From a virus (lineage: Duplodnaviria; Caudoviricetes): DNA of 52,652 nucleotides. How positions within the stretch are numbered: position 1 is the stretch's first letter; each line of letters begins with the position of its first letter. Below, piece by piece: positions 2,449 to 26,869 of the stretch. The notes beneath the pieces were generated by a model, which was not told the origin of the DNA, did not search any database, and saw only the letters and a list, made by a program, of their open reading frames with translations. The stretch is taken from IMG/VR virus record IMGVR_UViG_3300036770_004392, positions 1-52,652 of that record. One strand, given 5' to 3'. The position numbers were made by a program, and so were the translations under genes.

Positions 2449-3125
2449 ATGTTAAACTTGTCTCCTACAGCCAACCCACTGAGGAATTTAGACACAACGG
2501 TATCGAGGATGCGCAGGACCTTATTGCTTTCTGCGCCCGCGTCAGCAACCCCAGCAATCAGTTCAATACAGAAACAAGCGAAAAACTTATACGATACTTG
2601 GTACGAAACAAACACTGGAGTCCCCTCGAAATGGTCAGTGCCTGTCTCGAAATCACAACCACAAGAGACATTGCCAGACAAATCTTACGACACAGAAGTT
2701 TTAGTTTCCAAGAGTTCTCCCAGCGATACGCTGACCCTACTAAAGATCTCTCGTTCGTTCTTAGAGAGGCCCGCTTGCAAGACACCACTAACAGACAAAA
2801 CAGTATTGAACTTGGAACAAGTATTGAGGAGTCCATACTTAGAGAAGAATGGATTCGGCAACAAGAAGAAGTCTTACGAGCAGCAAGAAGAGCCTACACT
2901 TGGGCTATCAATAAGGGCATAGCAAAAGAACAAGCTCGTGCTGTATTACCAGAAGGTTTGATGGAAAGTCGTTTATATATGAACGGTACTATCCGTAGTT
3001 GGGTGCATTTTATTGAACTACGTAGTGCTAATGGTACACAATTAGAACATCAACAAGTGGCACGAGCTTGTGCTGAGGTTATTTCTAAAGTTTTTAGTTT
3101 GGCTTCAGAATTTACGACCAATTAA
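2445..3125 (+). CDS. thyX: FAD-dependent thymidylate synthase
   Basis: ThyX signature RHRSFSFQEFSQRY (RHRx7S), plus HWSPLE, AKEQARAVLP and TQLEH. Confidence 0.97.
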   Translation: MNVKLVSYSQPTEEFRHNGIEDAQDLIAFCARVSNPSNQFNTETSEKLIRYLVRNKHWSPLEMVSACLEITTTRDIARQILRHRSFSFQEFSQRYADPTKDLSFVLREARLQDTTNRQNSIELGTSIEESILREEWIRQQEEVLRAARRAYTWAINKGIAKEQARAVLPEGLMESRLYMNGTIRSWVHFIELRSANGTQLEHQQVARACAEVISKVFSLASEFTTN

Positions 3126-3650
3126 CATATAACGATTAAAAATTTTATCTGGATAAACAAACTCTTTTTGCCCTTCATAATAGTTTAACATAGGATATTT
3201 TATTTTCAGCTGATTAAGGTTAAAAACATAGTCATGAAAATCATTATCATCATGTATTTGATCAGTTCCTTGTACTACAATAATTTGTGAGGTTAATTTT
3301 TCAAACCATTGCTTTTCTATTATATGTTCGCTCGATGTATTGATAACAATATCAAATTCTGCCAAATCAACTTTGTTAGCATCTTGAGTGAAAGCTTTAA
3401 ATTTCCATTTATCAAATACCCATGTATTATTGATCTTATCGGCAATAGGTTCTACAGATGGGTCAATATCATATGATCTAATATAATCAATCGATGCTCT
3501 TTTTCTTGCGTATAACAATAAAGCAACCAATCCGTACCAACCACCTAAGATTGCTATCTTAGACCTTATAGGAATAAACTTTTCTAGTTCTTCACAGAGC
3601 CAGATTTTACTTTCTATTTGACCGTGACTAAATGCACTTAAATCCAGCAT
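3105..3650 (-). CDS. class I SAM-dependent methyltransferase-like protein
   Basis: Motif I-like IAILGGWYG, acidic end of beta-2 (SYDID), DIVINTSSEH. Likely start MLDLSAF at 3650 rather than 3683. Confidence 0.7.
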   Translation of the reverse strand: MLDLSAFSHGQIESKIWLCEELEKFIPIRSKIAILGGWYGLVALLLYARKRASIDYIRSYDIDPSVEPIADKINNTWVFDKWKFKAFTQDANKVDLAEFDIVINTSSEHIIEKQWFEKLTSQIIVVQGTDQIHDDNDFHDYVFNLNQLKIKYPMLNYYEGQKEFVYPDKIFNRYMLIGRKF

Positions 3651-4320
3651 GTATAAATTGCTCCTTAAGCCAGTCAAAATCATTTATTTTTGATATTTTT
3701 TTAATATCTTGATAATATGCACGAGCATACTCGTTACCAGATCTAGCACCAGAGATACATTCTTTGCCAAAAGGCATATCTTGACCTTTATGCATCCAAT
3801 CATATAATCTAATAGAACTATCATTTTTATCAATATCTAATTCAACGTTGATTGTTAATTTAGCTGCTTCTCTAAAAGCACTACGCCAAGTGGAGAGTTG
3901 ATCAGTATTAAACACTGTCACATTACTAACTTCATTTATAACTTTAATTTTTTTACTTATATTCATTGTCATATCTAAACTAGATTCGTCTAATTGTTGA
4001 GTCAATCTTTTTGGCAGCAATTTTACTGCACCATATCCATATTTTAAACCATTTATAGGATTAATACTTTTAAAAATATGTACAATATCTTGATCATAAT
4101 CATGCACTTTATAAGAAAAATTAAAACTATCTAATATATATGAATCACCATCAACTACCCAAAACATTTTTGTAAGTGCTCGGTTGGCAGCAAGTTTATG
4201 AGCCGCATGGATTCCTTTGATTCCATCTATCCTGTAAGCAGTTACAAATCTAGATTTTAATCGTCGCCAATGATTTTCGGCAGGAATTTCATTATTTGAA
4301 ATAAAAATTATATCATACAT
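3628..4320 (-). CDS. GT-A-fold glycosyltransferase-like protein (paralogue of 19229-20140)
   Basis: YDIIFIS..E N-terminus, DxD motif FWVVDGD, WRSAFRE motif. Likely start MYDIIF at 4320. Confidence 0.65.
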   Translation of the reverse strand: MYDIIFISNNEIPAENHWRRLKSRFVTAYRIDGIKGIHAAHKLAANRALTKMFWVVDGDSYILDSFNFSYKVHDYDQDIVHIFKSINPINGLKYGYGAVKLLPKRLTQQLDESSLDMTMNISKKIKVINEVSNVTVFNTDQLSTWRSAFREAAKLTINVELDIDKNDSSIRLYDWMHKGQDMPFGKECISGARSGNEYARAYYQDIKKISKINDFDWLKEQFIHAGFKCI

Positions 4321-4325
4321 AGGTA

Positions 4326-4333
4326 TATAAATA
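4326..4333 (+). promoter_or_regulatory. T4-type late promoter-like motif TATAAATA
   Basis: Exact T4 late consensus in the divergent intergenic gap, 31 nt upstream of ATG 4365. Confidence 0.5.
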
Positions 4334-4364
4334 TATATCAACTTAATTTAGAATAAACAAAATT

Positions 4365-5414
4365 ATGGATATTACCCCTGGCAAACCAATCAGAACATAT
4401 AATGAATTAGGACAATGGAGAGATTGGAGTACAGATGAATTAGTAGGTGCTAAACTAAATTATCTCCTTAGATGGAAATGTGGAGCAGGATTAGACAGTT
4501 TATACATTGATATGGATGGAGGAGTATGGACAGCTAGTTGTAGGGTAGGTGGAAAATTAGGTAACGTATGGGACGACTTTACTACTCCTAATGATTGGAT
4601 CACTTGTACTCGTAATGTATGTAGCTGTGGTGCAGACTTGTTTATTCCTAAAACAAAATCTGAAGAATATAAACCTTTACTTTTCAAAAGTAAAAATTAT
4701 CCTACAGAAACAGGAAAACGAGACAATGAACTAACTGATTTTGTAGCTATGGAAAGAACCCATGCTAGTGATCAAAAACAAGTGTATTGGGAAATTGGTA
4801 GAAGATGTAATTATGACTGTAGCTATTGTTGGCCTTGGATACACAATAATACTGACCCGCACAAACCATTAGAAGACCTTATGCGGGCTACTCATTTGAT
4901 TGAAAGTAAATTTACCAAAGGTGAAAGTGTTAATTTTATTATCAGTGGCGGAGAGCCAACTGCTAATAAAGATTTTTTAGATTGGCTACGGTATCTTAAT
5001 ACGTGTGGTCATCACATTAGCCTACACAGCAATGGTAGTAGAAAACCAGATTACTACAGAGAAATAATACACTACGGTGATTTAAATCTAAGCGTTCATT
5101 ATGAATTTTATGATCGTGCTAGATTTGTTAAAGTTGTAGAAGCCGTTGCAGATGAAAAAGCAAAGCATAATAATCAAAATGTAGGCCACCTGGAAATTAA
5201 GTTTATGATGGCTCCGCATAATAGAGAAGAAACTTTAAACTTAGAAGAAGAATTAAAAAGCTTACCGAATTTTAAAGAACTATGTACATGGGCTATTGTA
5301 CCTATACGTGGTAGCTTGAATAATAAAAATAGTGCTCCGAACAATAACTCAGGCAGCGAAATTATGGATGGTTATAGTAAGGAAGATTACATCTTGTTCG
5401 GGGATAGAACATGA
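4365..5414 (+). CDS. radical SAM protein with N-terminal SPASM/twitch-like Cys domain
   Basis: CNYDCSYC (CX3CX2C), SGGEP, HSNG. N-terminal WKCGAG...DMDG...SC...CTRNVCSC auxiliary-cluster motif. Confidence 0.92.
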   Translation: MDITPGKPIRTYNELGQWRDWSTDELVGAKLNYLLRWKCGAGLDSLYIDMDGGVWTASCRVGGKLGNVWDDFTTPNDWITCTRNVCSCGADLFIPKTKSEEYKPLLFKSKNYPTETGKRDNELTDFVAMERTHASDQKQVYWEIGRRCNYDCSYCWPWIHNNTDPHKPLEDLMRATHLIESKFTKGESVNFIISGGEPTANKDFLDWLRYLNTCGHHISLHSNGSRKPDYYREIIHYGDLNLSVHYEFYDRARFVKVVEAVADEKAKHNNQNVGHLEIKFMMAPHNREETLNLEEELKSLPNFKELCTWAIVPIRGSLNNKNSAPNNNSGSEIMDGYSKEDYILFGDRT

Positions 5415-6634
5415 TCGATCAAGTATTATGTACAGCACCGTTAGTATCTGTATTAATCGATACTAACAAAGGAATTAGACCTTGTTGTTATTTTCAAGGC
5501 AAGTTTATGGGTAACATAAAAGAACAGCCTATAGTTGAAATTCTTGATAGTGAACGTTGGAAGCAATTAAAACAAAAAATGTACGATAAGGAGTGGCCGA
5601 GTGAATGTTTAGATTGTAAAAAAATTGAAGAGGACACAGGATTTAGTCTCCGAAAAATGTATACTAACAATATGGATATGACAGGTTGGCAGAACAACAA
5701 GTTAATATATATGGAGTTTAACGGTAGTAATATTTGTAATTTAGCCTGTCTACATTGTCATCCTGGGTTTAGTAGTAGATGGCTTTCTGATAATAAGAAA
5801 GCAATAGCAATAGCAGAAACTCTTACTCCTGAAAAAAAAGAACGTGCCTTAATGTTTCGGTCAATAAGGCAACAAACTGACGACTCTATAATTACAACAA
5901 CTAGAAGTCATCCACCAAATCCAGAATTAGTATTAGAAAATTTAAAGCAAATTGACCTAACAAATATACGGACAATAAATTTTAAAGGAGGGGAGCCATG
6001 TTTAAATTCTGAAACTGTAGCGGTGTTAAAGCATATCGATCAACAAGGACTACTAGGTAATATTACGGTCTATATTACTACTAACGGAACATATATAACT
6101 GACGAAATACTTTCTTTATTGTCTAAATCTAAACATGTAGAATTTCTAATTTCAGTTGACGGTATAGGAGAGTTATTTAATTATATAAGATATGGTGATG
6201 CTAAATTTGATAATATAGAACCAGTAATTGCCAAAGTAAACGCTCTTAACAATAGTGTTAATATTCGCATGAGTTGCTCGTTTATGAACTATAACGCATT
6301 TAATTTAATAGAAGTCAGAGATTGGAAAATTAATTTGTCTAAGAAATATGATAAAATTATAACACAAGGAGGATTTAACAATAGTGTACAGAGTCCTTCA
6401 TACTTATCTATAAACACCTTATCTGATCCTACAAGAAAACAGTTAATCGATTTTTATACTGCTAACAATAACAGTGGAGAGTTTAATGTTGTCATCAATA
6501 CATTAAGAAATAATTACTTAGGTGATGATATACATCGAAAATGGGTAGAATATACTGAACTTATGGAAAGTATAAGAGGAAACAATATATTAGAGTTAGT
6601 TCCTCAATTATCAATTGAGATGAAAAAGAAATGA
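5411..6634 (+). CDS. N-terminal twitch-domain radical SAM protein
   Basis: LCTAP...IRPCC...CLDC N-terminal domain; CNLACLHC; FKGGEP; TTNGT; ISVDG. Confidence 0.92.
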   Translation: MIDQVLCTAPLVSVLIDTNKGIRPCCYFQGKFMGNIKEQPIVEILDSERWKQLKQKMYDKEWPSECLDCKKIEEDTGFSLRKMYTNNMDMTGWQNNKLIYMEFNGSNICNLACLHCHPGFSSRWLSDNKKAIAIAETLTPEKKERALMFRSIRQQTDDSIITTTRSHPPNPELVLENLKQIDLTNIRTINFKGGEPCLNSETVAVLKHIDQQGLLGNITVYITTNGTYITDEILSLLSKSKHVEFLISVDGIGELFNYIRYGDAKFDNIEPVIAKVNALNNSVNIRMSCSFMNYNAFNLIEVRDWKINLSKKYDKIITQGGFNNSVQSPSYLSINTLSDPTRKQLIDFYTANNNSGEFNVVINTLRNNYLGDDIHRKWVEYTELMESIRGNNILELVPQLSIEMKKK

Positions 6635-9210
6635 TAGATAAAGACAGTTGGATTGCAGAAAACGTATTCCCTAAGAACGATTTTTCGGAAACCCGAGTAA
6701 AAAGACTTGGAGTTACTTCAGTAAATGTCTTCAAGGCTACACGAAAAACTAAGTTTACATTATGTGTTTTAGGCAGTTGGGCCATTTATATGCCGCCTTA
6801 CAATCTAGCAAGGCTCTCAGGATTGACACGAGAAGCAGGGTATCCTACTCGTGTTTTCGACTTTAATGTACAATCACATTATGCTTTAAAAACTGCCAAT
6901 CCAGATCTTGCCGATGCGTGGAATGGAGCAAACTATTGGTGGTGGCAAGAAGGTGAATATGATAAACGAATACATCCAACATACGAACCAATACTATATC
7001 AGTACCTTGAACTTTTATTAGAAGACACTCCTGATATCATAGGTTTAAGTTGCTATTATACAAATATTTTACCTACAAAATGGATAATTAATAAGATCAA
7101 AGAAAGAAATCCTAACATAACAATTATTTTAGGAGGTCCCGAGTGTCATGAAAAATATTTTAGAAAACCTCAAGGTGCAGATTATTATTTTGTAGGCGAA
7201 AGTGAACAAAATATTATTGATTTTTTAAACAACTGGGAACAAGGAATTAAACCTGAAAATGAAGCTATAGGTAGTCTATACAGCGACACTAGAATAGATA
7301 TTGATAGTTTACCGTATCCTGACTACAGCGACTTTGACTTAACCAAATATTGGGGTAAAAATTCTATATGTGCAGAAATCAGTAGAGGGTGCATTGCTAA
7401 ATGTAGTTATTGTACAGAAGTTTACTATTGGAAATTTAGAGATCGAGGAGCTACTACCGTAGTTGACGAATTAGAATATCAAGTTTTGAAATATAATATA
7501 GGATTTGTTTCATTTGTTGATAGCCTTATGAACGGAAATTTAAAAGAATTCCGTAAATTTTGTGAAGAACTTGTTGAAAGAAATCTAGGTATATCTTGGT
7601 GGGGGTATGCTAGATGCGACGGAAGGATGGATTTAGAATTTTATAAACTTATAAGAGAGGCAGGAGGACAAGGATTTAATTATGGAATAGAAACAGGTAG
7701 CGATAAGGTTTTGCTAGCGATTAACAAAAAAAATACTGTTGCTGAGATAAATCAAAATATTATAGATTCGCATAAAGTTGGAATGAAAGTGTCTGCCTGT
7801 TGGGTCATTGGAGCACCCGGAGAAGATATAGAAGCATTTAACCATAGTTTTAATATGTTATGGAATCATCGACGTAGAATAATGGCAGTTAGTCCAGGAC
7901 CTGGGCTAGGAGATAATCCCGGATCATTATATGATGATAGAGAAAGATATAATTTAAATCCAAGGAACAAAAATTGGCTTGGCGGTTGGTATACTCTAGA
8001 TTTAAAAAATACAAAACTCCACAGACTTATAAGAATAAAACTTATGCATATATGGTTATCAATATGTCAGAAGTTTGAAGGAGTCGTATCAAACGTACAT
8101 AGTGTAGGAGATATAAACGACCATTTTAATCTTAAATTTACAGATACAGACTTTCAAGAAGAAGTACCATATGAGAATTTTAGCTACAATATAGTTAAGT
8201 CCGAGTTAGGAGATTTTGCTGATACTGTAATGAATGAAGCATTCGGTTTATTCAGATTACTGTGGAGAGTAAAAGGAGGATTTGAAATGACAATTAAATT
8301 TAATCCTCAACTAGATAGACAAGATTTTTCTTTTTGCATACCAGAAAATAGTACCCTATATGCAGAACATTTTTTCCAAATAAACAAAGAAGGAGAATTT
8401 AGTACTAAGGTTAATTATAAATTTTCTAATAATATAAGAACTATAATAGACACTCCTGGTTTCGAATTTATTTCTGATATTTCAGGTAAATGGTCCGACG
8501 AATCGAAAAAAATTAAACAATATAAAACATTTAACCTAGCAACAGAGAATCAAGAAAATACTTGGTCACCAAAAACACAATTATTAAAAGAAAGTTGTTT
8601 ATCAGGAATATCTATTAGAGAAAGACGTATGCTAATGCAAACTGTAAAACGTTTACCTAAGAATAGTGTGATTTTGGAAACAAATTCTGATCTCGGAGGA
8701 CGAGCTACTATTATGTCCAACGCAAATCAAGACATTATTATTAATAGTATAGAAACTTTTACAGGTAATTTAAAAGAGCAATTTGACGGAATGAAACCTT
8801 GGTTAGAGTCTCAAATGATAGACTTAACCTCAGATCCAGATGGTACAAAAACTTTTTTATCACAAATAGAAAATAGTTTTAAAGAAGATATTACAGGTAA
8901 AAAAGCATGGGAAATAATCACATCTCCATACAAAAATATTAAATTATTTTCGGATTATAGTTTAGAAGATTTAGAGTTAATTTGGAATACTCCAATTGAT
9001 TTATGCATAATCGATATACATCAAAATCCTAGATTACATGATAACTTAAAATTATGGACATATCATATAAAAACAGAAGGGTTATTATTGGCTCACTTGT
9101 ACGATACAGAACTAGGTCCGGACGTGGTTACTGAGATAGACAAATTACTTTCTCAAGGTTGGAAACTGATAAGAAAATTAGACAGGTTCATTTTAATTCA
9201 AAAATTGTGA
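6631..9210 (+). CDS. cobalamin-binding radical SAM protein (class B methylase-like) fused to a C-terminal methyltransferase-like domain
   Basis: B12-binding-like N-terminus (PPYNLARL, PDIIGLS, IILGGP, VGESE), LPYPD, EISRGCIAKCSYC, YGIETGSD, VIGAPGE. C-terminal ~200 aa Rossmann-like (VILETNSDLGG, IDLCIID, IKTEGLLLAH). Confidence 0.9.
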   Translation: MIDKDSWIAENVFPKNDFSETRVKRLGVTSVNVFKATRKTKFTLCVLGSWAIYMPPYNLARLSGLTREAGYPTRVFDFNVQSHYALKTANPDLADAWNGANYWWWQEGEYDKRIHPTYEPILYQYLELLLEDTPDIIGLSCYYTNILPTKWIINKIKERNPNITIILGGPECHEKYFRKPQGADYYFVGESEQNIIDFLNNWEQGIKPENEAIGSLYSDTRIDIDSLPYPDYSDFDLTKYWGKNSICAEISRGCIAKCSYCTEVYYWKFRDRGATTVVDELEYQVLKYNIGFVSFVDSLMNGNLKEFRKFCEELVERNLGISWWGYARCDGRMDLEFYKLIREAGGQGFNYGIETGSDKVLLAINKKNTVAEINQNIIDSHKVGMKVSACWVIGAPGEDIEAFNHSFNMLWNHRRRIMAVSPGPGLGDNPGSLYDDRERYNLNPRNKNWLGGWYTLDLKNTKLHRLIRIKLMHIWLSICQKFEGVVSNVHSVGDINDHFNLKFTDTDFQEEVPYENFSYNIVKSELGDFADTVMNEAFGLFRLLWRVKGGFEMTIKFNPQLDRQDFSFCIPENSTLYAEHFFQINKEGEFSTKVNYKFSNNIRTIIDTPGFEFISDISGKWSDESKKIKQYKTFNLATENQENTWSPKTQLLKESCLSGISIRERRMLMQTVKRLPKNSVILETNSDLGGRATIMSNANQDIIINSIETFTGNLKEQFDGMKPWLESQMIDLTSDPDGTKTFLSQIENSFKEDITGKKAWEIITSPYKNIKLFSDYSLEDLELIWNTPIDLCIIDIHQNPRLHDNLKLWTYHIKTEGLLLAHLYDTELGPDVVTEIDKLLSQGWKLIRKLDRFILIQKL

Positions 9211-10029
9211 TTTTATAAATTGGCTAAGTTTTTCTGCTACTAAATTAACAGACCGCAAATTAGGATGTTGATTTTTTTTAGATATTGTTAAATTATCAAA
9301 ATCAGTATTAAGAAATGCTACCCAAGATTTACCAAACATATGATTATCTGATTCGTCCCCAAATGGCATCCAATTTTTATTTGAAGATATATTATCCAAA
9401 GATATTAACGGTTTATTCTTAACTCCTATCAAACTTTTCTTTATTTCATCGTATGTTATCCACCCACAATTGCTATCTATACCTCTATAAAATGTATAAC
9501 TTATATCTCGATATTTCAAGTAATTCTCTAATAATAGAATATCAATTATGTACTGTAAAGCATGATCATAAACTGAATTATTAATCAATATTTCTCCAAT
9601 ATAATCTTCATAATCTTTATACCCTGCCATTCCATTTAGGTGGTGTACAGTTAAGTTTTGGAAAATGTTATATTCTTTTAAATATTTCAAACGTCGAGTC
9701 CAACCAGTCCAACCTACACATACATGATATTGTTGTTGTTCTGCTAGGGATAAATTCATTAAAAAATTTAATACAGACAAAGCTATTCCTGTATTACTAT
9801 TGCCATCACGAGAAAGATCTACACTTTCTGTATCTAACAACGAAGAAGTTTTACTAGATAAGTTAAACTTTTTTCTATAATCTGTATAATCAGGATAGTT
9901 TCTTTTCTTTTCTTTACTATCCCATTCTATAGGATTAAGTTTTAGAACATCTTTTACGAAATCATCCCACACAAGTGCATCACCTGCTGTAAAACTACAT
10001 CCTGCGAAAAGTAGTTTTTTATTAAACAT
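9193..10029 (-). CDS. SGNH/GDSL-like hydrolase or acyltransferase (copy A)
   Basis: Block I-like LLFAGCSFTAG, block II-like DLSRDGNSN, C-terminal HPN. Confidence 0.75.
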   Translation of the reverse strand: MFNKKLLFAGCSFTAGDALVWDDFVKDVLKLNPIEWDSKEKKRNYPDYTDYRKKFNLSSKTSSLLDTESVDLSRDGNSNTGIALSVLNFLMNLSLAEQQQYHVCVGWTGWTRRLKYLKEYNIFQNLTVHHLNGMAGYKDYEDYIGEILINNSVYDHALQYIIDILLLENYLKYRDISYTFYRGIDSNCGWITYDEIKKSLIGVKNKPLISLDNISSNKNWMPFGDESDNHMFGKSWVAFLNTDFDNLTISKKNQHPNLRSVNLVAEKLSQFIKSQFLN

Positions 10030-10740
10030 AATGAGATTCCTTCTAATTTAAAAACTGTAATCTTATAAATTGACTAAGTTTTTCTGCTACTAAATTAACA
10101 GACCGCAAATTAGGATGTTGATTTTTTTTTGATATGGTTAAATCAACTGTTTTAAATTCTGACCAAGATTTACCAAACATATGATTATCTGATTCGTCCC
10201 CAAATGGCATCCAATTTTTATTTGAAGATATATTATCCAAAGATATTAACGGTTTATTCTTAACTCCTATCAAACTTTTCTTTATTTCATCGTATGTTAT
10301 CCACCCACAATTGCTATCTATACCTCTATAAAATGTATAACTTATATCTCGATATTTCAAGTAATTCTCTAATAATAGAATATCAATTATGTACTGTAAA
10401 GCATGATCATAAACTGAATTATTAATCAATATTTCTCCAATATAATCTTCATAATCTTTATACCCTGCCATTCCATTTAGGTGGTGTACAGTTAAGTTTT
10501 GGAAAATGTTATATTCTTTTAAATATTTCAAACGTCGAGTCCAACCAGTCCAACCTACACATACATGATATTGTTGTTGTTCTGCTAGGGATAAATTCAT
10601 TAAAAAATTTAATACAGACAAAGCTATTCCTGTATTACTATTGCCATCACGAGAAAGATCTACACTTTCTGTATCTAACAACGAAGAAGTTTTACTAGAT
10701 AAGTTAAACTTTTTTCTATAATCTGTATAATCAGGATAGT
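9322..10740. repeat. 578-nt direct repeat (9322-9899 = 10163-10740) inside tandem-duplicated genes
   Basis: Line-by-line comparison shows no mismatch at offset 841. The gene 5' ends (9962-10029 and 10800-10867) are also identical. Confidence 0.95.
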
Positions 10741-10867
10741 ATAGTTTCATTTCTTTACTATCCCATTCTATAGGAAGTGATAAAATATTTTTCGCAAAGT
10801 CATCCCACACAAGTGCATCACCTGCTGTAAAACTACATCCTGCGAAAAGTAGTTTTTTATTAAACAT
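10043..10867 (-). CDS. SGNH/GDSL-like hydrolase or acyltransferase (copy B)
   Basis: Near-identical to 9193-10029 with the same motifs. Confidence 0.75.
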   Translation of the reverse strand: MFNKKLLFAGCSFTAGDALVWDDFAKNILSLPIEWDSKEMKLYYPDYTDYRKKFNLSSKTSSLLDTESVDLSRDGNSNTGIALSVLNFLMNLSLAEQQQYHVCVGWTGWTRRLKYLKEYNIFQNLTVHHLNGMAGYKDYEDYIGEILINNSVYDHALQYIIDILLLENYLKYRDISYTFYRGIDSNCGWITYDEIKKSLIGVKNKPLISLDNISSNKNWMPFGDESDNHMFGKSWSEFKTVDLTISKKNQHPNLRSVNLVAEKLSQFIRLQFLN

Positions 10868-10868
10868 T

Positions 10869-14608: not shown

Positions 14609-14625
14609 ACTAAATTCTTATTTCA

Positions 14626-16056
14626 TTATTTTAGAATATCATTATCATCATATAATTTTAACAGTTCATAAACTTCATTAAATGTTTCCTTAAATGATTG
14701 ATTACGATAGACATCATGTTGTTGTGTAAATTTAAAAAACTTCTCTAATTCTAAAGGATCGTATTCTCTATCATACATATATTTGATAATATTATCTATA
14801 GAAGGGCTCCAGTCAACAAATTCAACATCAGTAGTATCTATAGATCGTAACTTATTTTCTATTTGTGATTTAACAAAGTTTGGAAAATTTACAAGACTGT
14901 AATGATTTGGATAATGAACTAAATTGAATACAACAGGCAGTTTAAAATTATTTTTCACATACTCAAGTATTTCATCAAGATAATACACATTATGAATACC
15001 AACTGTTATGTATATCCTAAAAAATAAATTTACATTATATTTTTTAGTTAATAACTTAAACTTATCTATATTAGAAACAACTTCATCCCATTTTGCATTC
15101 ATACGCTGATATTCAAATCTAGGTCCGATATCATCAACGCTAAGACTTATAGTTACTTCACGAAAGTTTTTCCATAACAGGAAAAATTTTTCATCACAAA
15201 TTGTGGCATTAGAATTGTACCAGATATTTGTTATATCTGGATTTCCGAAATCATTTATTATATTTAAAATAATATCGTGTTCTTGTTGCATTAAAGGTTC
15301 GCCGCCATAAAACTCTAAATGATCTATATTTTTAGCCCATTTTTTTAAAATTTCTGCGTTAGACGGATCGGCACTAAATTTTTCTCTCGAATTTTCTGTA
15401 TACATCTTGATAATGTTTGGATCAGATATCTTAAGATCTTTATGTTCTTTAATCCATTGACTGCTTAAAAAAGGTGTACATATTCTACATTTTAAATTAC
15501 AGAGATTGCTCAATTTTAAATCAAGACTTTTCGGAGATTGTCTAGGAATATGATGAAAAAATGTAGAATTTGGATGCAATTTTCCTCCATTATCATACAT
15601 TTTACGCATACTCATCATACCTGCTTTTTCTTCATCCCAACAAGCATGACATCCAGAAGGTCTTTCATTGCGTAAAAACTGCCCTCGAAGCTTCTGCAAT
15701 TCTGGCTGATTCCATAAATCTTCTATTGTAACATCTGGAAGTTTAGGAACATCTTGTTGCCAATCGCTATCTCCTACTTTATATTTACAGCAAGGTCTAG
15801 CACGACCATCAGGATCTATCTGTAAATGTATAAAAGGATAAAGACAAAAATTTTCCGGAACCTGTGACTCTAGATCTTTCAAAAATTTAGGAAATTGACT
15901 GTGTTCGTACTCTGGCTTACCTAACAAGTTAAAATTAAATTCTCTATCTAAAATCCCTGCCATCTTAATTTTATTTTCAGTAGGTACGCTTTTAGCCTCA
16001 CCATAACTAACAATAATTTCATCATCTACGTAATTTTTAAATATTCTTTTATCCAT
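14626..16056 (-). CDS. N-terminal twitch-domain radical SAM protein
   Basis: FCLYPF...ARPCC...CHACW; CNLKCRIC; YGGEP; NSNAT. Start probably ATG 16056 (TAATG coupling). Confidence 0.93.
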   Translation of the reverse strand: MDKRIFKNYVDDEIIVSYGEAKSVPTENKIKMAGILDREFNFNLLGKPEYEHSQFPKFLKDLESQVPENFCLYPFIHLQIDPDGRARPCCKYKVGDSDWQQDVPKLPDVTIEDLWNQPELQKLRGQFLRNERPSGCHACWDEEKAGMMSMRKMYDNGGKLHPNSTFFHHIPRQSPKSLDLKLSNLCNLKCRICTPFLSSQWIKEHKDLKISDPNIIKMYTENSREKFSADPSNAEILKKWAKNIDHLEFYGGEPLMQQEHDIILNIINDFGNPDITNIWYNSNATICDEKFFLLWKNFREVTISLSVDDIGPRFEYQRMNAKWDEVVSNIDKFKLLTKKYNVNLFFRIYITVGIHNVYYLDEILEYVKNNFKLPVVFNLVHYPNHYSLVNFPNFVKSQIENKLRSIDTTDVEFVDWSPSIDNIIKYMYDREYDPLELEKFFKFTQQHDVYRNQSFKETFNEVYELLKLYDDNDILK

Positions 16057-16811
16057 TAAATAATCCTGCACTTACGCAAAAAAGACATATATAAAGGAAG
16101 ATATTTAATAAATCCATTATAAATATCTAGAAGTTCATTAAAATTAGTTACAGCGTCTTTATACTCAACTGCCCATGTTTTTTGTATAAATTTATTATCA
16201 CGAATAGGAATTTTATTTTTAAGACAATCTTCTAATAGATGTTCATATCTTACAGTAAGGTGTTTATAATTTTTAAATAAATGCTTTCTATATTCGGTAG
16301 ATTGATAATGATTAAATAAGTATTCTATCCACTCATCGATCTGAACTGTAATTTTTCCTAAAGCATCAGCAGGTACAGGGTTTTTGTGGTTTTCGTATCG
16401 GTGAGCAATTTTTGTAGTGTTAGCAATAACATGGCTTAAAGCCCTATCAAACATATTTCTTTCTAAAAATAAAAAACGAAAGCCACAATCCTCTAATGTT
16501 TGAATAAAATTATCATAAGACATTCTGCTTTCGTTGCAAAATAAGATAGCTACAAGACTCTGATCTGGATTTATCTTCTTTATTTGAGCTGCCCTTTTAT
16601 CCATAAACTGTTGCCTATCTAATTTTTCAGTAGGCATTTCTGTAGACACTTTAACGAAATTATCATTATCATATGTATAATCCCAAAATACATTTGTATA
16701 CATATCATAATTTGTTATTTCATCTAGTAGAACGCACTGTTTTGGCAACATTGATTGTAACCAATGACTTCCACATCTAGGTTCTCCTACTATACACCAT
16801 CTTTCAACCAT
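16056..16811 (-). CDS. sulfotransferase-like protein (Stf0/P-loop type)
   Basis: 5'-PSB-like IVGEPRCGSHWL, 3'-PB-like FLERNMFDRALS, and VRYEHL. Confidence 0.7.
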   Translation of the reverse strand: MVERWCIVGEPRCGSHWLQSMLPKQCVLLDEITNYDMYTNVFWDYTYDNDNFVKVSTEMPTEKLDRQQFMDKRAAQIKKINPDQSLVAILFCNESRMSYDNFIQTLEDCGFRFLFLERNMFDRALSHVIANTTKIAHRYENHKNPVPADALGKITVQIDEWIEYLFNHYQSTEYRKHLFKNYKHLTVRYEHLLEDCLKNKIPIRDNKFIQKTWAVEYKDAVTNFNELLDIYNGFIKYLPLYMSFLRKCRII

Positions 16812-17763
16812 TGTTTAATAATTCCTTTGTACTCATAATATCAAAATTACAATGGCACATCTTCTTAGTGCAGATTACTGGATCAAGTGGTAAATTTATT
16901 TCGGAGTTATCTATTCTTCCTATGACACCACCCTCTTTACACCACCCCCTGTAGATACTTCCATCCATATCAACTATCAACTGCTCTACTCCAGCAAAAC
17001 ATTGCCACCCACTCCAATCATTAGTTTTTTCACTAATAAATCTATGAGCACTTGACACCTTGGTAATACCTTCTGAATCTACCATACGCATTGCACCTCG
17101 ATAATATTCAAAAGTTTTAGTAAACTTTATATGTTTACTAATTAATTCATGTTGTTTATCAAATATTTTCTTTTGGAAATCATTATATTCGTACAATTGC
17201 TCTCCAAAATCTATAATCAATGGCTGTAAAGCCATTGATAAATTTCCTAAATTTTTTACCTTGTTTGCAACGGAATAGCAATAATCGAACTTATCTGGAC
17301 TCATCATAATATTGACATGTGTACGCACTTCATTATTAAGTATCTTTACCACTTCAATAAAATGTTTTTCATCGGCGTGTTCAGGATGAAAACTTAAACA
17401 CACATGATCAAAAAATTGTTTATTTTCTTCCCACCATCGAGTAGTTCTGGACCCATTACTTATAAGTCCTACCTTAATGTCCATGTCAGTACAAAACTTA
17501 CAGATATCAATAAAATGTTTAAACATTGTTACTTCGCCGCCTGTAAATTCAAAGTATATATTTTTATGCAAATAATGATTTTTTACTTTAGTTATAAACC
17601 TTTTAATCAATTGTAAATCAGGCCAAGACTTACTACCATCATGCAGATTAGAAGGGCAATAGCTGCATTTATAATTGCAAGTATTACCTAAGCACCAGTT
17701 GATTACAAACCAATCCCTATGTTCTTCTTTTGAATGTTCCAACCTTATATATTTGTGTTCCAT
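16804..17763 (-). CDS. radical SAM protein with C-terminal SPASM/twitch-like domain
   Basis: CNYKCSYC, TGGEV, ISNGSR. C-terminal WQCFAG...DMDG...WC...CTKKMCHC. Likely start MEHKY at 17763. Confidence 0.92.
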   Translation of the reverse strand: MEHKYIRLEHSKEEHRDWFVINWCLGNTCNYKCSYCPSNLHDGSKSWPDLQLIKRFITKVKNHYLHKNIYFEFTGGEVTMFKHFIDICKFCTDMDIKVGLISNGSRTTRWWEENKQFFDHVCLSFHPEHADEKHFIEVVKILNNEVRTHVNIMMSPDKFDYCYSVANKVKNLGNLSMALQPLIIDFGEQLYEYNDFQKKIFDKQHELISKHIKFTKTFEYYRGAMRMVDSEGITKVSSAHRFISEKTNDWSGWQCFAGVEQLIVDMDGSIYRGWCKEGGVIGRIDNSEINLPLDPVICTKKMCHCNFDIMSTKELLNNG

Positions 17764-17784
17764 TAAATTAATTTCCAAAAATTA

Positions 17785-17791
17785 TAGTTAT
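17785..17791 (-). promoter_or_regulatory. late promoter-like motif ATAACTA
   Basis: 21 nt upstream of ATG 17763, the same spacing as the ATAAATA/ATAAGTA sites in the tail module. Confidence 0.35.
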
Positions 17792-19188
17792 TGTAGATGT
17801 TTAGTCATATCAAAAAAATCTGCATATTCCGGAAATGTCTCTACAAAATTTAATTTTCTACGCTCGTCAAATTTACTAAACCATGTATAAAATTTTTTCC
17901 TATCTTCCAATCTATCTTGATTATTATTACGCAAGCTATTAGCTAAATTTTGTAAAAATATAATATATTGGTCCCATCTACCCCAAAAATCACTAACTTC
18001 AGGCATTATACCTGTTCGTTGCTGCATATACTCGATTGCTTCATCAATATATCTAGCAAAATCAGTTGTCAATACAAAAGGACTCTGATGACTAGGATAA
18101 TTCACTACAGCTTGTTTAAGAGATATTGGTCTATTATATTTTTTGTACAAATTTTCAGTGAATTTAATAAAATCTACAGTCGTAGCAATACTTAACGCAT
18201 TAATACTGGAAATAAAACCAAACTCAAAATTAAATTTACTGCCTAGTATTTTATCAAGATTACTGACAAATCTTTCCCAATCTAAACCATTTCTTATATA
18301 TTCTGCCCTATTACCAACTGCTTCCATACTACCTAAAATTTCAACATCAAAATGTTCTGTTAATTTAGGCAAATATTCTAAAAACTTATTCATATAATTT
18401 GGAGGAGTATTTAAATTAGTAACTATCCAAAAAGTCATTCGTTTTTTTCTCAAATGCTTTACAGGTTCGATCGCCAATATAGACTTTTCAACAAATCTAT
18501 AAAATTCAGGCATAATTAAAGGCTCTCCACCAATAGCACCTATTCTTCCTAAATGCAGTTTTACAGTATCAAACCATTTCCAATAATATTCTTCAAATTT
18601 ATCATTCGCTTTTGGAAACTCTCTATCATATTGTTCTTGTGTAATTTCACCATGCTTTATTCTTTCTGTGGCCCATTGTGTACTGTATACATGATTGCAA
18701 TACATACATTTCATATCACAAGTATTACCTAAACTTACTTCAAGCATATAGGGCATATGAGATTTAAGTGCAGGATGATGAATGGATTGTATCTTAGACA
18801 TCTCTACTCTTAATAATTCTTCTGAATAATTCTGATTATAAGGAATAGTTTTAGATCTAAGCAGCTGGTGCCAAAATTTATCAGGATCGTGTCTAGGACT
18901 ACTCATACCTGCATCTTCTAACCCCCAACAACTTCTACAATCTTCATGTCTCTTACCTTGAACCAGAGCCAATCTAGATTGCAACATATCATAATTATTA
19001 AGGAAAGCATCAGTTCCTAATTTTTCTAAAGTAGCTTCCGATACTGGCTTACTAGGAGTACGACAACAACTACGGAATTCGCCACGTTCCATATGAAAGA
19101 TAGGATAGTTCCATTTAAGATCACAGATGGTATTAAATGGGTCAGAGTAATTATCAGAATCTACTATAGGAATAGTTTTTCGTCTCAT
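17788..19188 (-). CDS. N-terminal twitch-domain radical SAM protein
   Basis: ICDLKW...RSCC...CRSCW; CDMKCMYC; IGGEP; VTNL; EYIRNGLDW. Confidence 0.92.
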   Translation of the reverse strand: MRRKTIPIVDSDNYSDPFNTICDLKWNYPIFHMERGEFRSCCRTPSKPVSEATLEKLGTDAFLNNYDMLQSRLALVQGKRHEDCRSCWGLEDAGMSSPRHDPDKFWHQLLRSKTIPYNQNYSEELLRVEMSKIQSIHHPALKSHMPYMLEVSLGNTCDMKCMYCNHVYSTQWATERIKHGEITQEQYDREFPKANDKFEEYYWKWFDTVKLHLGRIGAIGGEPLIMPEFYRFVEKSILAIEPVKHLRKKRMTFWIVTNLNTPPNYMNKFLEYLPKLTEHFDVEILGSMEAVGNRAEYIRNGLDWERFVSNLDKILGSKFNFEFGFISSINALSIATTVDFIKFTENLYKKYNRPISLKQAVVNYPSHQSPFVLTTDFARYIDEAIEYMQQRTGIMPEVSDFWGRWDQYIIFLQNLANSLRNNNQDRLEDRKKFYTWFSKFDERRKLNFVETFPEYADFFDMTKHLQ

Positions 19189-19228
19189 TTTTTTTCCTTA
19201 GTTCTAATTTTAATTAGAATAATATTTT

Positions 19229-20140
19229 TCAATCATTTTCTATTAAGTCTACTCTATTATGCGACTTGTAAACACGTTTGAAAAACTTTGATTGATAACT
19301 ATTAAAAGTTACTATGTCTAATTCTAAATTATTTCTTAACTCTTTTTCTAACCATTCTAAACGATAATCTAAATCAGTTGCAGATCCGTATTCCTTTGTA
19401 TTCCAATACTCAGTAAGATAATCAAAATCTCTTACATTACGATAATCCCAATCTGTTAGATTAGTCATATAACATCCTTCCCTGGCACCCATCATAGCCC
19501 ATAAACCATTTTCCATATCAGCACCAACATTACACCAAATTAATAATCTATGTAGATTCTTCCAATGCACACCTTCTTTTACAGTGACTTTAGTAAGTTT
19601 AGCCCCACGATTAAGGCTCATCTTTACACCTTCTCTAAATCCAGCACGCCAGGCTTGAAATGGTGTAGCATTATTATATACATCACTGTAACAATCGTTC
19701 ATTTGGATATATTTATTATCCCAACAAAAATCAACTTGACCGACTCTATCATCAGGATCTGAGTTTTCATGTGTCTTCATATTCATTACAAAGTCTACAG
19801 TCCAGCATTTTAGTCCACCATTTCCGTACATTAAACCGTTTATGATATTATGTCCGCTCCAACTTATTACACTATTTTCTAATGTAGGATATTTTTCCAT
19901 ATCAATTTCTATATTAAGAAAATCCGTACGAATAATATTATCACCGTCTACTGTGGTAAAACGTGGTGTCTCACTTAACTGAGCACAGGCTTTATGAGCA
20001 CTATCACTACCTTTAACTCCATGAACACGTTTAGCCCAAGGTACTTTGGTCAATAAATCAGCATAATTTTTCTCAGCATTTGGCTCATCATAACTAAGAT
20101 AAATGATATCATACTCAATAGGTCTGAAAGTTTTTGTCAT
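19229..20140 (-). CDS. GT-A-fold glycosyltransferase-like protein
   Basis: YDIIYLSYDEP, FTTVDGD (DxD), AWRAGFREGVKM. Confidence 0.65.
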   Translation of the reverse strand: MTKTFRPIEYDIIYLSYDEPNAEKNYADLLTKVPWAKRVHGVKGSDSAHKACAQLSETPRFTTVDGDNIIRTDFLNIEIDMEKYPTLENSVISWSGHNIINGLMYGNGGLKCWTVDFVMNMKTHENSDPDDRVGQVDFCWDNKYIQMNDCYSDVYNNATPFQAWRAGFREGVKMSLNRGAKLTKVTVKEGVHWKNLHRLLIWCNVGADMENGLWAMMGAREGCYMTNLTDWDYRNVRDFDYLTEYWNTKEYGSATDLDYRLEWLEKELRNNLELDIVTFNSYQSKFFKRVYKSHNRVDLIEND

Positions 20141-20799
20141 GCTTTTGTCTTTATATATTGATATTTGGTAAATAGTTTTCTTGTAAAAATGCTTATCTTT
20201 GTTTCATTATAGTCTATCTCGTCAAAAGGTAAAATACAATAATAGTTTTCTATTAATTCTTTAATTGGAACTGTTAAAGTTTTTATTAAAATATTTGGGT
20301 CATTATAAAGAGTAATATAAAAGTTAAACTCTTTATCAAAGTATAAATTTCTTGCCCTAAAACTATCAGCAAGACTTCCATTTATATATATTTTCCAACA
20401 AGTATCTATATAGTCCTGTATTAAAGTAATATCATTGAAAGGATCATAGATAGTAGGATAGCTAGTACTTGTCCTAAAAGGAATTTGAAATATTACATCT
20501 TGTATGCTCTGCAATACCTCATCTTCTTCGTCTTTTTTAATAAAAACAAAATCCTTTTCGTCAGGACTAAAAACAATCTTATAATTGTCAATATTATCAT
20601 TACCTTCTAATATTGCCTGTACTTGATGAAATTGAACAACTACCGATGGCAAATTATAATCTTGCACACTACTAATAGACTTAATTTCACCAGTATCTTG
20701 AATAAAATGTACAAATCTTTCTGTGTTTACATTAGAATTATATCTACGATTAAATTCTTCCAACTGATCTTCTGTAATATCCCATTCTACTTGTAACAT
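20137..20799 (-). CDS. hypothetical protein
   Basis: 220-aa ORF with ATGA coupling to the downstream gene. Confidence 0.75.
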   Translation of the reverse strand: MLQVEWDITEDQLEEFNRRYNSNVNTERFVHFIQDTGEIKSISSVQDYNLPSVVVQFHQVQAILEGNDNIDNYKIVFSPDEKDFVFIKKDEEDEVLQSIQDVIFQIPFRTSTSYPTIYDPFNDITLIQDYIDTCWKIYINGSLADSFRARNLYFDKEFNFYITLYNDPNILIKTLTVPIKELIENYYCILPFDEIDYNETKISIFTRKLFTKYQYIKTKA

Positions 20800-20801
20800 T
20801 A

Positions 20802-21644
20802 TTAAATTCCTAAATCTTGTTCTAAATGATTAATTATTGTGTCATTTAAAAAACTGTATTCAGTATAATGAAATAAACCAAACTGTTGATAATTTCCTAT
20901 TTTTAATTGACATTTATCGTTAAAATACCCACCAATACTATCTTGCCATGATTCGGTAGGATTTTCCCAACCTTGTAACATTGACTTCATATGTGTAAAC
21001 GTAACGACCGAATCTCTATGTGAAACAATTTCTTCGCAGTCAAGTATTTTAGTAACTAGACTGACTGTAACGTCCATACTAGGTACTTTAGGATAATTTA
21101 AATTAACATATTTTCCGTAAAATAATTCCCAGTTATTATTAATATATTCTACCCAGCTGAAAAAATTCTTGCTAAAGTCAGTTTTTTTAAAATACATAAG
21201 ACCAGAATATAAATCTGGTAATTGATTTGAATCAAAGGCTTTACGATAAAATCTTCCAGTAGCAATACGATTTCTATAGTCCCTTACTGAACTTGTAAAA
21301 AATATTTCGTACTTATCAAGATAAGTCCACCAATGACTTAGATCGGATAATACTAACATATCTGCATCTAAAACTATTGTTTCATCATAAGGACTACAAT
21401 GATAAAGCTTCCATCTATCTTCTGTTTTATAAGTAGTGGTATTTGTATTATTATAATCTCTCCATGGTATTGGAATTATATTATCAAAAACTACTCCATA
21501 TTTTGAAGGTAAATCATTATCAGTAACAATACTAACGTTAGTATCAGGTATATGCTTTTTTAAACTAAGTGCTAGAGCATAGGCACATTTAGTATACTTT
21601 TTAATACCCGAATCTTGAGCAAAGATTAAAAATCCTTTACTCAT
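20802..21644 (-). CDS. nucleotide-diphospho-sugar transferase-like (GT8-like) protein
   Basis: SPYDETIVLDAD (DxD), YSGLMYF. Start MSKGFL at 21644 (ATGAGTAA overlap). Confidence 0.75.
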   Translation of the reverse strand: MSKGFLIFAQDSGIKKYTKCAYALALSLKKHIPDTNVSIVTDNDLPSKYGVVFDNIIPIPWRDYNNTNTTTYKTEDRWKLYHCSPYDETIVLDADMLVLSDLSHWWTYLDKYEIFFTSSVRDYRNRIATGRFYRKAFDSNQLPDLYSGLMYFKKTDFSKNFFSWVEYINNNWELFYGKYVNLNYPKVPSMDVTVSLVTKILDCEEIVSHRDSVVTFTHMKSMLQGWENPTESWQDSIGGYFNDKCQLKIGNYQQFGLFHYTEYSFLNDTIINHLEQDLGI

Positions 21645-22941
21645 TCGCACACTCCTCTATAACCCTTGAAAGACTGAATTTGTTCATAACATGAACATTG
21701 ATGCCTTTAGTTTTTATCAAAGTATATTCTCCCTTATACTTTTCCTTTTCTAGAAGTAATGTAAGTTGCTCTTTATTATGTTTTAAAAGTATGTCCTTAT
21801 CAATAGAATAATACAAAGTACCTGGTAGCTCATGTGCCCAAGATCCAGTTTGATAACCATTCATTATATGGATAGCAATACTAAAAGCAAAATCATTCCT
21901 ATATAAACTGTGATCTATTTGATAAACATATCTATAATAATTCCAGTTATCTTGTATGTGAGATAATAAATTAAAGAAAGTCTCTGTATTTTTATTTTTT
22001 CTAAAATAAAAAACAGTAGCCCAATAAAAATCAATTGATTTGTCACTTAATGTAACTAATCTAGGATCATACCTGAATCCCGAAAGATCGACACTATTTT
22101 TATAAATTAAAAAATCATGAGATTGTTCCCAACAATATTTTAATACATCATTGTTAATTAAATAATCACAATCTATAACCAAGGTTTCATCAAAAGGACT
22201 TAATTCAAAGCTTTTCACACGTATATCATTCTTAAATCTAAGGCGTCTAAAACTCATTGCACCATCAAAATATCTTCTATACTGAGGAGAAGATGAATAA
22301 ACTATCTGAACTTCATTGGTATTTTTCCAAATTTCATTATTAATTTTAACATTTATTTTATCAATATTAGAATTACATAGCCATAGGGTTCTTTCATAAA
22401 GTAATAAATCACCTTTTAAAAAATTTTCAGTACAAGATAATTCTTTAACATTATCTAATATTAAATCATATTTGTCTAAAGAAAATTCCCCATCTTCACT
22501 ATATTCTTCTCTGCATCGATATAATTTGTTTTCGTACCATACATGCTGCCCTGTTAGATAAGGCAAATTTGGATACCATTTGTCAACATCTATTCCAACA
22601 TATTCTTTACTTAAATTTAATTCACTTACATCAAATGGCAAAATATCCTCACCTTCTGCTTCTTTTTTCCAAATAGAATGTTCATAATAAACTAGACTGC
22701 CTACAGGATATCGATAATTTAAATTAAAATTTCCTATATCAGACTGATGAACTACCTTGATCAAGATGTCAAGATAATCTTTATAATTAGGACATTGTTT
22801 GGATAACCAATCAAAACTATCAGTTACCAAAGCTATAGGAATATTCAAATGTTTCTTGACCTGCTTTGCAGCATAAAGAGCTATCTTAGTATAATCAACT
22901 TGCTCGTTATTTAGAGCATATATTAATAAACCTTTACTCAT
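21637..22941 (-). CDS. nucleotide-diphospho-sugar transferase-like (GT8-like) protein with an internal repeat insertion
   Basis: MSKGLLIYA, SPFDETLVIDCD, WATVFYF, RNDFAFSIA. About 150 extra residues relative to paralogue 20802-21644. Confidence 0.72.
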   Translation of the reverse strand: MSKGLLIYALNNEQVDYTKIALYAAKQVKKHLNIPIALVTDSFDWLSKQCPNYKDYLDILIKVVHQSDIGNFNLNYRYPVGSLVYYEHSIWKKEAEGEDILPFDVSELNLSKEYVGIDVDKWYPNLPYLTGQHVWYENKLYRCREEYSEDGEFSLDKYDLILDNVKELSCTENFLKGDLLLYERTLWLCNSNIDKINVKINNEIWKNTNEVQIVYSSSPQYRRYFDGAMSFRRLRFKNDIRVKSFELSPFDETLVIDCDYLINNDVLKYCWEQSHDFLIYKNSVDLSGFRYDPRLVTLSDKSIDFYWATVFYFRKNKNTETFFNLLSHIQDNWNYYRYVYQIDHSLYRNDFAFSIAIHIMNGYQTGSWAHELPGTLYYSIDKDILLKHNKEQLTLLLEKEKYKGEYTLIKTKGINVHVMNKFSLSRVIEECANE

Positions 22942-26867: not shown

Positions 26868-26869
26868 TA

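Follow-up and report, generated by a model that had tools for sequence, protein, structure and literature searches.

The viral contig examined here (IMG/VR record IMGVR_UViG_3300036770_004392; 52,652 bases, completeness estimate 14%), hereafter called the window and meaning the whole stretch, carries directly behind its tail-fibre genes a cluster of 20 open reading frames (ORFs), among which glycosyltransferase-like (GT) and radical S-adenosylmethionine (rSAM) genes predominate. This cluster is the subject of the present study, and it is quite probably an island for making and tailoring a glycan. Nineteen of its ORFs occupy positions 3105-22947, and a 20th (22934-23287) bridges to the fibre genes. 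On the minus strand, a baseplate wedge protein (43672-47169) is followed downstream by a 4298-aa virion protein, several fibre proteins and then the tailoring cluster. The wedge protein shares 31-35% identity with its counterparts in Atu_ph07, GAP32, CBB and further jumbo myoviruses of the Rak2-like kind; judged from its sequence, the phage carrying the cluster is an RsoM2USA-like (RsoM2USA/Rak2-like) jumbo myovirus. An earlier note on this DNA had claimed that the cluster is contiguous with the tail operon, and the spacing bears this out, as the minus-strand genes from 23287 down to 9193 are separated by gaps or overlaps of at most 53 nt. The genes at 4365-9210 are inverted relative to the rest of the cluster and lie on the plus strand. 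Ordered from the fibre genes to the far end, and named below by their first coordinate, the features are:

23341..30766, minus strand: tail-fibre gene block, directly upstream of the cluster and in the same orientation, with a Phage tail collar domain, a Peptidase_G2 IMC domain and tail-fibre PHROGs.
22934..23287, minus strand: conserved 117-aa protein, first gene after the fibre genes, found in 59 of 59 informative loci (defined below).
21637..22947, minus strand: GT8-like glycosyltransferase A with an inserted triple repeat, paralog of 20802.
20802..21650, minus strand: GT8-like glycosyltransferase B, by family profile against glycogenin; phrog_1903.
20137..20799, minus strand: acidic 220-aa protein, a poorly conserved core member with 3 invariant columns only.
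19229..20140, minus strand: GT-A1, GT-A-fold glycosyltransferase-like by AlphaFold model and fold matches; near flank of the variable island.
17788..19188, minus strand: N-terminal-twitch rSAM adjoining GT-A1; NF033640 248.2 bits; homolog RsoM2USA_349.
16804..17778, minus strand: small rSAM with a C-terminal Cys-rich (twitch-like) domain; PF04055 37.4 bits.
16056..16811, minus strand: sulfotransferase-like protein; Sulfotransfer_1 (PF00685) 21.8 bits against a cut-off of 22, E 1.4e-4, residues 6-196.
14626..16071, minus strand: N-terminal-twitch rSAM; NF033640 330.1 bits.
13928..14608, minus strand: small SGNH-like candidate; Lipase_GDSL_3 E 1e-3, 19.8 bits against a cut-off of 27.
13216..13896, minus strand: small SGNH-like candidate by motif only (GDS at residue 7); 30% identity to 13928, no Pfam hit.
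12013..13191, minus strand: N-terminal-twitch rSAM; NF033640 308.7 bits.
10869..12020, minus strand: N-terminal-twitch-like rSAM; NF033640 153.5 bits (under cut-off), PF04055 43.9 bits, SPASM domain at residues 31-94.
10043..10867, minus strand: DUF6071-like, SGNH-like, tandem copy 2; BLAST E 5e-5 to L010:7043-7870.
9193..10029, minus strand: DUF6071-like, SGNH-like, tandem copy 1; atlas score 0.96 and TM 0.75 to DUF6071 clusters, GCS at residues 11-13.
6631..9210, plus strand: B12-binding (class B) rSAM of 859 aa; PF02310 39.5 bits (cut-off 32.1), PF04055 44.4 bits.
5411..6634, plus strand: N-terminal-twitch rSAM; NF033640 230.6 bits, SPASM domain at residues 7-70.
4365..5414, plus strand: small rSAM with an N-terminal Cys-rich (twitch-like) domain; PF04055 54.9 bits.
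3628..4341, minus strand: GT-A2, paralog of GT-A1 (28% identity to 19229, with the invariant DxD among the residues in common); borders the variable island on its far side.
3105..3683, minus strand: 192-aa Rossmann-like domain protein and core member, with GGWYG and DxD-like motifs.

The conserved core of the cluster consists of the 117-aa protein, GT8-like A, GT8-like B, the 220-aa protein, GT-A1, GT-A2 and the Rossmann-like domain. Its four GT-like genes, proposed in the earlier note, gave no hit in Pfam; they stand at the level of profile and fold, as two GT8-like proteins and two GT-A proteins that form the paralog pairs 21637/20802 and 19229/3628. The family profile of 20802 matches glycogenin-1 (GT8) with E 3.4e-6 over ~100 residues (profile positions 3-104 only), the DxD motif included. 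The AlphaFold model of 19229 has a pLDDT of 86.3, and its DxD (D65, D67) is invariant. In Foldseek this model matches SunS, TarS and PBCV-1 A64R at E about 5e-4 to 3e-3, and the VIA comparison gave Z 9.9 with a root-mean-square deviation of 3.1 over 137 residues; the fold matches of GT-A1 also include mimivirus R699, K4CP and chondroitin synthase, all of a generic GT-A kind (Z 8-10). According to the model, 19229 and 3628 have a GT-A fold with a DxD metal site. The transferase chemistry of GT-A1 is read from the DxD, because nucleotidyltransferases such as MobA score nearly as well. A PDB profile search with the 19229 family gave nothing usable, Pfam searches at E up to 1 returned only noise for 20137 and 19229, and the nearest atlas clusters of 20137 are unnamed viral hypothetical proteins. 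The inserted part of 21637, at residues about 83-200, contains three ~48-aa repeats starting at 83, 133 and 179, which recall a carbohydrate-binding module (CBM_5_12 at E 0.39 only); most homologs of 21637 are about 281 aa long and are without this insert. For 22934, there was no match in Pfam (E up to 1) or in a PDB profile search.

No phage record matched in a megablast with the entire cluster. A search of 50,697 phage records gave relatives of 19229 and 20802 for Ralstonia phage RsoM2USA alone, the sole cultured relative, in which genes 354 to 347 are, in this order, homologs of 22934, 21637 and 20802, a gene without a match where 20137 would be expected, and homologs of 19229, 17788, 3628 and 3105. 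These core genes again lie directly downstream of fibre-like genes, the GT-A1 proteins of the two phages are 47% identical, and RsoM2USA_349 is the only rSAM of that phage. ORFs 356, 359 and 361 of RsoM2USA, neighbours of the core, were detected in virions, according to its description (PMC8504454). In metagenomes the 19229 family is large, with at least 8000 significant relatives (8000 of 8000 scored candidates), none of them named, and its presence was confirmed in at least 599 viral-collection stretches (599 of the 600 listed).

I compared the best 80 viral loci, many of them near-duplicates, each spanning 10 kb to the left and right of the anchor. The 59 loci in which the sequence reaches 5 kb or more upstream were taken as informative, and the interval between GT-A1 and GT-A2 was counted in the 67 loci that have GT-A2 downstream. 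Synteny with the tail genes, which the earlier note had named as a check on its own proposal, is found in RsoM2USA and in all 59 informative loci, where homologs of 20802, 21637, 22934, 23341 and 25279 lie upstream on the same strand; the position behind the fibre genes is fixed. The median identity across loci is 63% for GT-A1 (75 loci), 43-46% for the other GTs, 33-41% for the fibres, 73% for ThyX and 77% for a DUF2201 protein.

Between GT-A1 and GT-A2 lies a variable island, so that the architecture is that of a conserved core plus an island. In the window the island measures 14.9 kb and holds eight rSAM genes. By tblastn, rSAM-like matches in this interval number zero in 50 of the 67 loci, one in 10, two in 4, and three, six and seven in one locus each; as 50 of the 67 relatives have no such match, the rSAM step is optional. 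Five whole related contigs gave 0, 0, 2, 7 and 10 rSAM matches, and the window is hence an expanded form of the hypervariable island, not the largest, because one relative has ten rSAM genes. The cassettes differ even in the closest relatives, whose GT-A1 is 81-84% identical. A scan of 82 proteins from the islands of relatives revealed the UDP-glucose/GDP-mannose dehydrogenase family, DegT aminotransferase fragments and a hexapeptide acyltransferase (L077, L080), as well as a carbamoyltransferase (L084), a TauD dioxygenase (L164), an Asp/Asn beta-hydroxylase (L009), and, in L011, a cupin together with a (sugar) kinase/nucleotidyltransferase-like protein. DUF6071 proteins and more rSAM genes are present in these islands too.

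The two flanks of the island occur elsewhere as one protein. P0012 (529 aa) consists of GT-A1 joined to GT-A2, with 58% and 45% identity to the window proteins, and the 120 entries listed in the 19229-family search include 11 proteins of 526-531 aa. The 3105 family, with 1576 representatives, forms the C-terminal part of a fusion with GT-A1 and/or GT-A2 in 5 of its 150 best hits; 54 others of these 150 carry N-terminal extensions without an assigned domain. Since they are fused into one protein in other genomes, GT-A1, GT-A2 and the 3105 domain are best regarded as one functional unit, and it follows from the fusions that the island in the window is inserted between parts of an enzyme that is single elsewhere.

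All eight rSAM genes claimed in the earlier note are real, as each contains CX3CX2C and is supported by PF04055 or NF033640. The motif starts at residue 148 in 4365, 109 in 5411, 254 in 6631, 128 in 10869, 124 in 12013, 191 in 14626, 34 in 16804 and 157 in 17788. Seven of the eight exceed the cut-off of Pfam Radical_SAM PF04055 (29.5 bits), with 17788 falling below it at 27.0. By type they divide into five N-terminal-twitch enzymes (10869 being only like these), one B12-dependent enzyme and two small twitch types. The NCBIfam model for N-terminal twitch rSAM proteins, NF033640, has a whole-protein cut-off of 170 bits, which is passed by 5411, 12013, 14626 and 17788, with 10869 just short of it; Cys76, Cys141 and Cys144 are invariant in this family. 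A sequence search found no solved structure for NF033640 members, the best match being MoaA at E 1.6e-4, and a PDB profile search with 14626 gave nothing usable. BtrN and BlsE appear as faint PDB matches of the rSAM proteins, and AprD4 and BlsE as weak NCBIfam matches, all far under the family cut-offs. The best NCBIfam matches of 6631 are of methylase type and also far under cut-off (top match PhpK, 106 bits against 600); a methylase activity is a suggestion only, because no equivalog-level model is reached. A Pfam search up to E 1 gave nothing but noise for the C-terminal half of 6631, about 400 aa. The top NCBIfam matches of 16804 are STM4011 and viperin-like models, again far under cut-off. 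The proteins 4365 and 16804 are circularly permuted relative to each other, with the Cys-rich twitch-like domain N-terminal in the former and C-terminal in the latter.

The remaining island proteins are less clear. The N-terminal motif expected of the four SGNH genes proposed in the earlier note (G-D/C-S) is present in all four, and no Pfam model scores above its cut-off in any of them. For 9193, Pfam DUF6071 reaches an E of 0.016 only, and the atlas links this protein to GDSL clusters as well; the DUF6071-like group has a His-Pro motif near the C-terminus. Homologs of 13928 number only six. The proteins 9193 and 10043 are 93.5% identical and share a 300-nt stretch that is 99% identical, so that window positions 9184-10880 appear to be a recent tandem duplication. 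The proposed Stf0-like sulfotransferase (16056) retains a borderline Sulfotransfer_1 match, 0.2 bits under the cut-off, but no Stf0 match was listed, nor was there a PDB sequence match. The class I methyltransferase that had been seen in 3105 was not confirmed: the protein has no significant match in Pfam or the PDB, a PDB profile search gave only thermospermine synthase at a non-significant E of 0.85, hhalign to two bona fide methyltransferases was not significant, and among its relatives Methyltransf_31 occurs in 1 of 38, at 20.9 bits against a cut-off of 27.

When species genomes were scanned with the phage rSAM subfamily, 75 loci came up, 57 of which are labelled Bdellovibrionota. Neighbourhoods were examined in 30 bacterial loci, all but one on contigs of 50 kb or longer; two Pfam scans were made, one spanning whole loci and one ±4.3 kb, and the neighbour counts are therefore rough. 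GT genes are neighbours of the bacterial rSAM in 8 of the 30 loci and other sugar enzymes in 3 more, PqqD occurs in 3, fibre-like Peptidase_S74 proteins in 2, and in 1 locus flagellin genes flank the rSAM on both sides. Membrane proteins of 8-9 helices lie near the rSAM in all three loci checked, and homologs of GT-A1/A2 and of 3105 adjoin it in several loci. The interleaving of phage and bacterial copies in a quick tree suggests repeated exchange of rSAM genes between the two. Four Bdellovibrionota loci (L119, L155, L137, L114) are chromosomal tandem arrays of four to eight N-terminal-twitch rSAM genes. In a Bdellovibrio metagenome-assembled genome (MAG; L140), two flagellin genes enclose the rSAM homolog, with fliD and fliS nearby, and such surroundings are the usual site of flagellin glycosylation genes.

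Several features around the cluster were also recorded. At the inverted block 4365-9210 the divergent starts are 23 nt apart (window 4341-4365) and the convergent ends overlap by 18 nt (9193-9210); no inverted repeats were found around the segment, and the relative L071 has the same gene types in uninverted order. The fibre-block proteins 25279, 26870 and 27925 have their N-termini in common. The last fibre-like protein (23341-24237), for which Pfam at E up to 1 gave noise only, ends in a C-terminal Ser/Thr/Pro-rich tail of the type R-P-S-G-x-N-V-S-V-x-x-P-T-A, and most of the 54 distinct homologs listed (L009-L088) have it too. On the other side, window positions 2-3125 contain a block facing the cluster, with a DUF2201 metallopeptidase/VWA protein, three small uncharacterised genes and ThyX, and this block is repeated in about 30-43 related loci. 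That ThyX might point to DNA hypermodification was weighed and dropped, as it is the ordinary flavin-dependent synthase. No Rfam families or tRNAs were found in the window, and the former result argues against riboswitch control. The phage fibre plus GT module also occurs on MAG contigs labelled bacterial, namely L144 and L148 (153 kb and 335 kb; one Neomarinimicrobiota MAG), L111 and L150. The baseplate wedge on these contigs is 47% identical to that of the window; by sequence they look like mis-binned jumbo phage genomes, and the 335-kb contig may be a nearly complete one.

Glycan chemistry is the best reading of the cluster, because the islands of relatives hold nucleotide-sugar enzymes and GT genes adjoin the bacterial rSAM; these observations support the earlier note's idea of a line that builds and tailors a glycan. 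The GT8-like match to glycogenin and the GT-A fold model support glycan chemistry as well. I infer a glycan as the product, with the fibre proteins of the phage itself, encoded in the same operon, as its acceptor. In this scheme, the two GT8-like proteins, GT-A1/GT-A2 and their Rossmann-like partner, as the conserved core, would make a basic oligosaccharide from nucleotide sugars. The exchangeable island between GT-A1 and GT-A2 would supply the eight rSAM enzymes, the four SGNH-like proteins and the sulfotransferase-like protein, of which the rSAM enzymes would oxidise, epimerise or C-methylate sugars, the SGNH-like proteins acylate or deacylate them, and the sulfotransferase-like protein sulfate them. 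With the fibre proteins as acceptor, the outcome could be a lineage-specific fibre 'serotype'. No hydrophobic 19-residue window (membrane helix) was found in any of the 20 cluster proteins, and the machinery is therefore expected to be soluble, without an export or lipid-carrier step. The conservation of GT-A1, including the copy in a phage of the distant host Ralstonia, fits an acceptor common to all these phages, and this conservation, together with the unvarying location of the cluster where the fibre operon ends, leads me to prefer the fibre proteins as the target. Taken as a whole, a cytoplasmic island that builds and tailors a glycan for the virion fibres is a reading that I advance tentatively.

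Alternatively, the enzymes might remodel a glycan of the host envelope (lipopolysaccharide core, O-unit or capsule precursor) at the cytoplasmic face, with the host's own flippase, polymerase and ligase exporting the product, and the change might block superinfection or keep progeny from sticking to debris. Several observations count against a fibre target. Modification of the host O-chain is how the closest described islands have been read, GT8 being a typical family of the lipopolysaccharide core (both in PMC7029224), and in a jumbo-phage review GT clusters of cyanophages are taken to modify the host's outer polysaccharide (PMC7824862). The bacterial homologs of the rSAM, GT-A and 3105 proteins are clustered with polytopic membrane proteins of 8-9 helices and with GT2, DegT and ABC-2 transporter genes, a layout typical of envelope glycan pathways; a special link of rSAM with Peptidase_S74 in bacteria was rejected, its 2 loci among the 30 being judged no more than chance. 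PqqD-like peptide chaperones adjoining the rSAM in bacteria hint at peptide substrates. The SGNH, sulfotransferase and methyltransferase assignments, made from sequence, are weak. Finally, a promoter and terminator scan did not do better than shuffles (136 vs 125.6±12.2 and 9 vs 6.3±3.1), and because of this the co-transcription of the cluster with the fibre genes is deduced from spacing alone. The turnover of the island, like that of O-antigen loci, would suit a host glycan too. However, a membrane or lipid-carrier enzyme is absent from the 20 proteins, the conservation of GT-A1 across phages of very different hosts would be unexpected for a host-specific acceptor, and the fixed position at the end of a late fibre operon suits a virion substrate better than early exclusion. 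Remodelling of the host envelope is thus a possible but rather doubtful explanation, and I favour the still tentative one of virion fibre glycosylation over it.

Two further products are improbable. One is a glycosylated small molecule or peptide-derived product, for which the rSAM enzymes would modify a scaffold, peptide or cofactor-like, before its glycosylation and methylation, in the manner of mycofactocin. The PqqD-like neighbours in bacteria, which occur together with GT1 and DegT genes, would agree with this, as would the presence of SunS and ThuS, both peptide S-glycosyltransferases, among the top Foldseek matches of GT-A1 (weak matches); and twitch/SPASM enzymes of named NCBIfam families often act on peptides. 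Yet the window offers no PqqD, no protease and, with its tight gene spacing, no room for a precursor gene, and the relatives without an rSAM-like match between GT-A1 and GT-A2 keep their four GTs all the same, which makes such a product unlikely. Hypermodification of the phage DNA, in which the GTs and tailoring enzymes would act on bases such as hydroxymethyl-pyrimidines, is the weakest option and more unlikely still. RsoM2USA (L166) has at 7607-8443 a second, divergent ThyA-family gene (85 bits), and a few genes away from it a dCMP deaminase and a weak thymidylate-kinase-like gene, all annotated as hypothetical. A pattern of ThyA-like protein and dCMP deaminase is known in phages with hydroxymethyl bases, and in RsoM2USA these genes possibly represent a hydroxymethyl-pyrimidine pathway, as far as sequence can tell; phage GTs acting on DNA are known as well. 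Against this, the thymidylate synthase adjoining the cluster is ThyX, a ThyA-family gene was not found in any of five partial relatives, and in the MAG with the 335-kb phage-like contig the sole ThyA-family match is on another contig. There was no TET/JBP match in the five relatives either, in a search without a positive control, and a placement in a late operon is wrong for an enzyme needed during replication.

Should the fibres be decorated, as I tentatively propose, host recognition in a very abundant group of uncultured jumbo phages, whose GT-A1 alone accounts for more than 8000 protein clusters, would depend on post-translational chemistry that is invisible to sequence-based prediction of host range. 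It would also be, as far as the searched literature shows, the first phage virion glycosylation with rSAM chemistry. Whatever the target, NF033640 gains a genomic context and a testable class of substrates, the sugars. In the literature I found no description of the island of this lineage, of the four-transferase core or of the split and fused GT-A1/GT-A2/3105 unit; the dominance of NF033640 and its link with Bdellovibrionota were not found described, nor was a functional study of NF033640 found.

Virus-encoded glycosylation of virions has precedents. In the GT operons of mycobacteriophages, the capsid of chlorovirus PBCV-1 and the fibril of mimivirus, cytoplasmic GTs decorate structural proteins, and the glycans vary between relatives; Freeman reportedly described the mycobacteriophage case in 2023. 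The present cluster would resemble these systems in its virus-encoded GTs, which are predicted to be soluble. None of these systems is known to use rSAM enzymes.

The claim in the earlier note that no parallel was known is too strong. The tail-fibre 'host recognition cluster' of pelagimyophages and cyanomyophages is hypervariable like the island described here, lies in the structural region by the tail fibres and is rich in GTs, GT8 being the commonest, with swappable rSAM cassettes as the point of difference among close relatives (Zaragoza-Solas et al. 2020, PMC7029224), and another report mentions a marine T4-like phage genome with 12 rSAM genes (PMC5332604). Pelagimyophages are T4-like, however, whereas the present phage is of the RsoM2USA/Rak2-like jumbo lineage, and the conserved core of four GTs, the dual GT-A flanks in split form and the N-terminal-twitch family are not among the features described for pelagimyophages (PMC7029224).

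The enzymes themselves have likenesses outside phages. Twitch or B12-type rSAM enzymes, types that are also seen in the window, act on sugars in aminoglycoside and nucleoside pathways (BtrN, AprD4, BlsE and class B methylases such as GenK), where they oxidise, dehydrate, decarboxylate or C-methylate them. In contrast to these, the auxiliary-cluster domain is N-terminal in the N-terminal-twitch enzymes of the window. The fusion of GT-A1 with GT-A2 elsewhere recalls the two-domain GT-A polymerases, such as K4CP chondroitin polymerase and LARGE, whereas in the window they are separate genes 14.9 kb apart; that GT-A1/GT-A2 might act as a polymerase is only an idea by analogy.

In layout there is also a likeness with bacterial O-antigen and capsule loci, whose conserved flanks likewise surround a rapidly changing interior made up of GTs, sugar-nucleotide enzymes and genes for acyl, methyl or sulfate tailoring; homologs of the cluster enzymes are found in bacterial clusters of this kind. 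It is conceivable, though I regard it as doubtful, that the island is a viral counterpart of an O-antigen locus, in which the four-GT core glycosylates the fibres, swappable cassettes diversify the glycan, and NF033640 is a new class of carbohydrate-tailoring enzymes shared with the predatory Bdellovibrionota. Unlike such loci, the phage island is without a flippase, polymerase, ligase, transporter or initiating transferase, and is dominated by rSAM genes.

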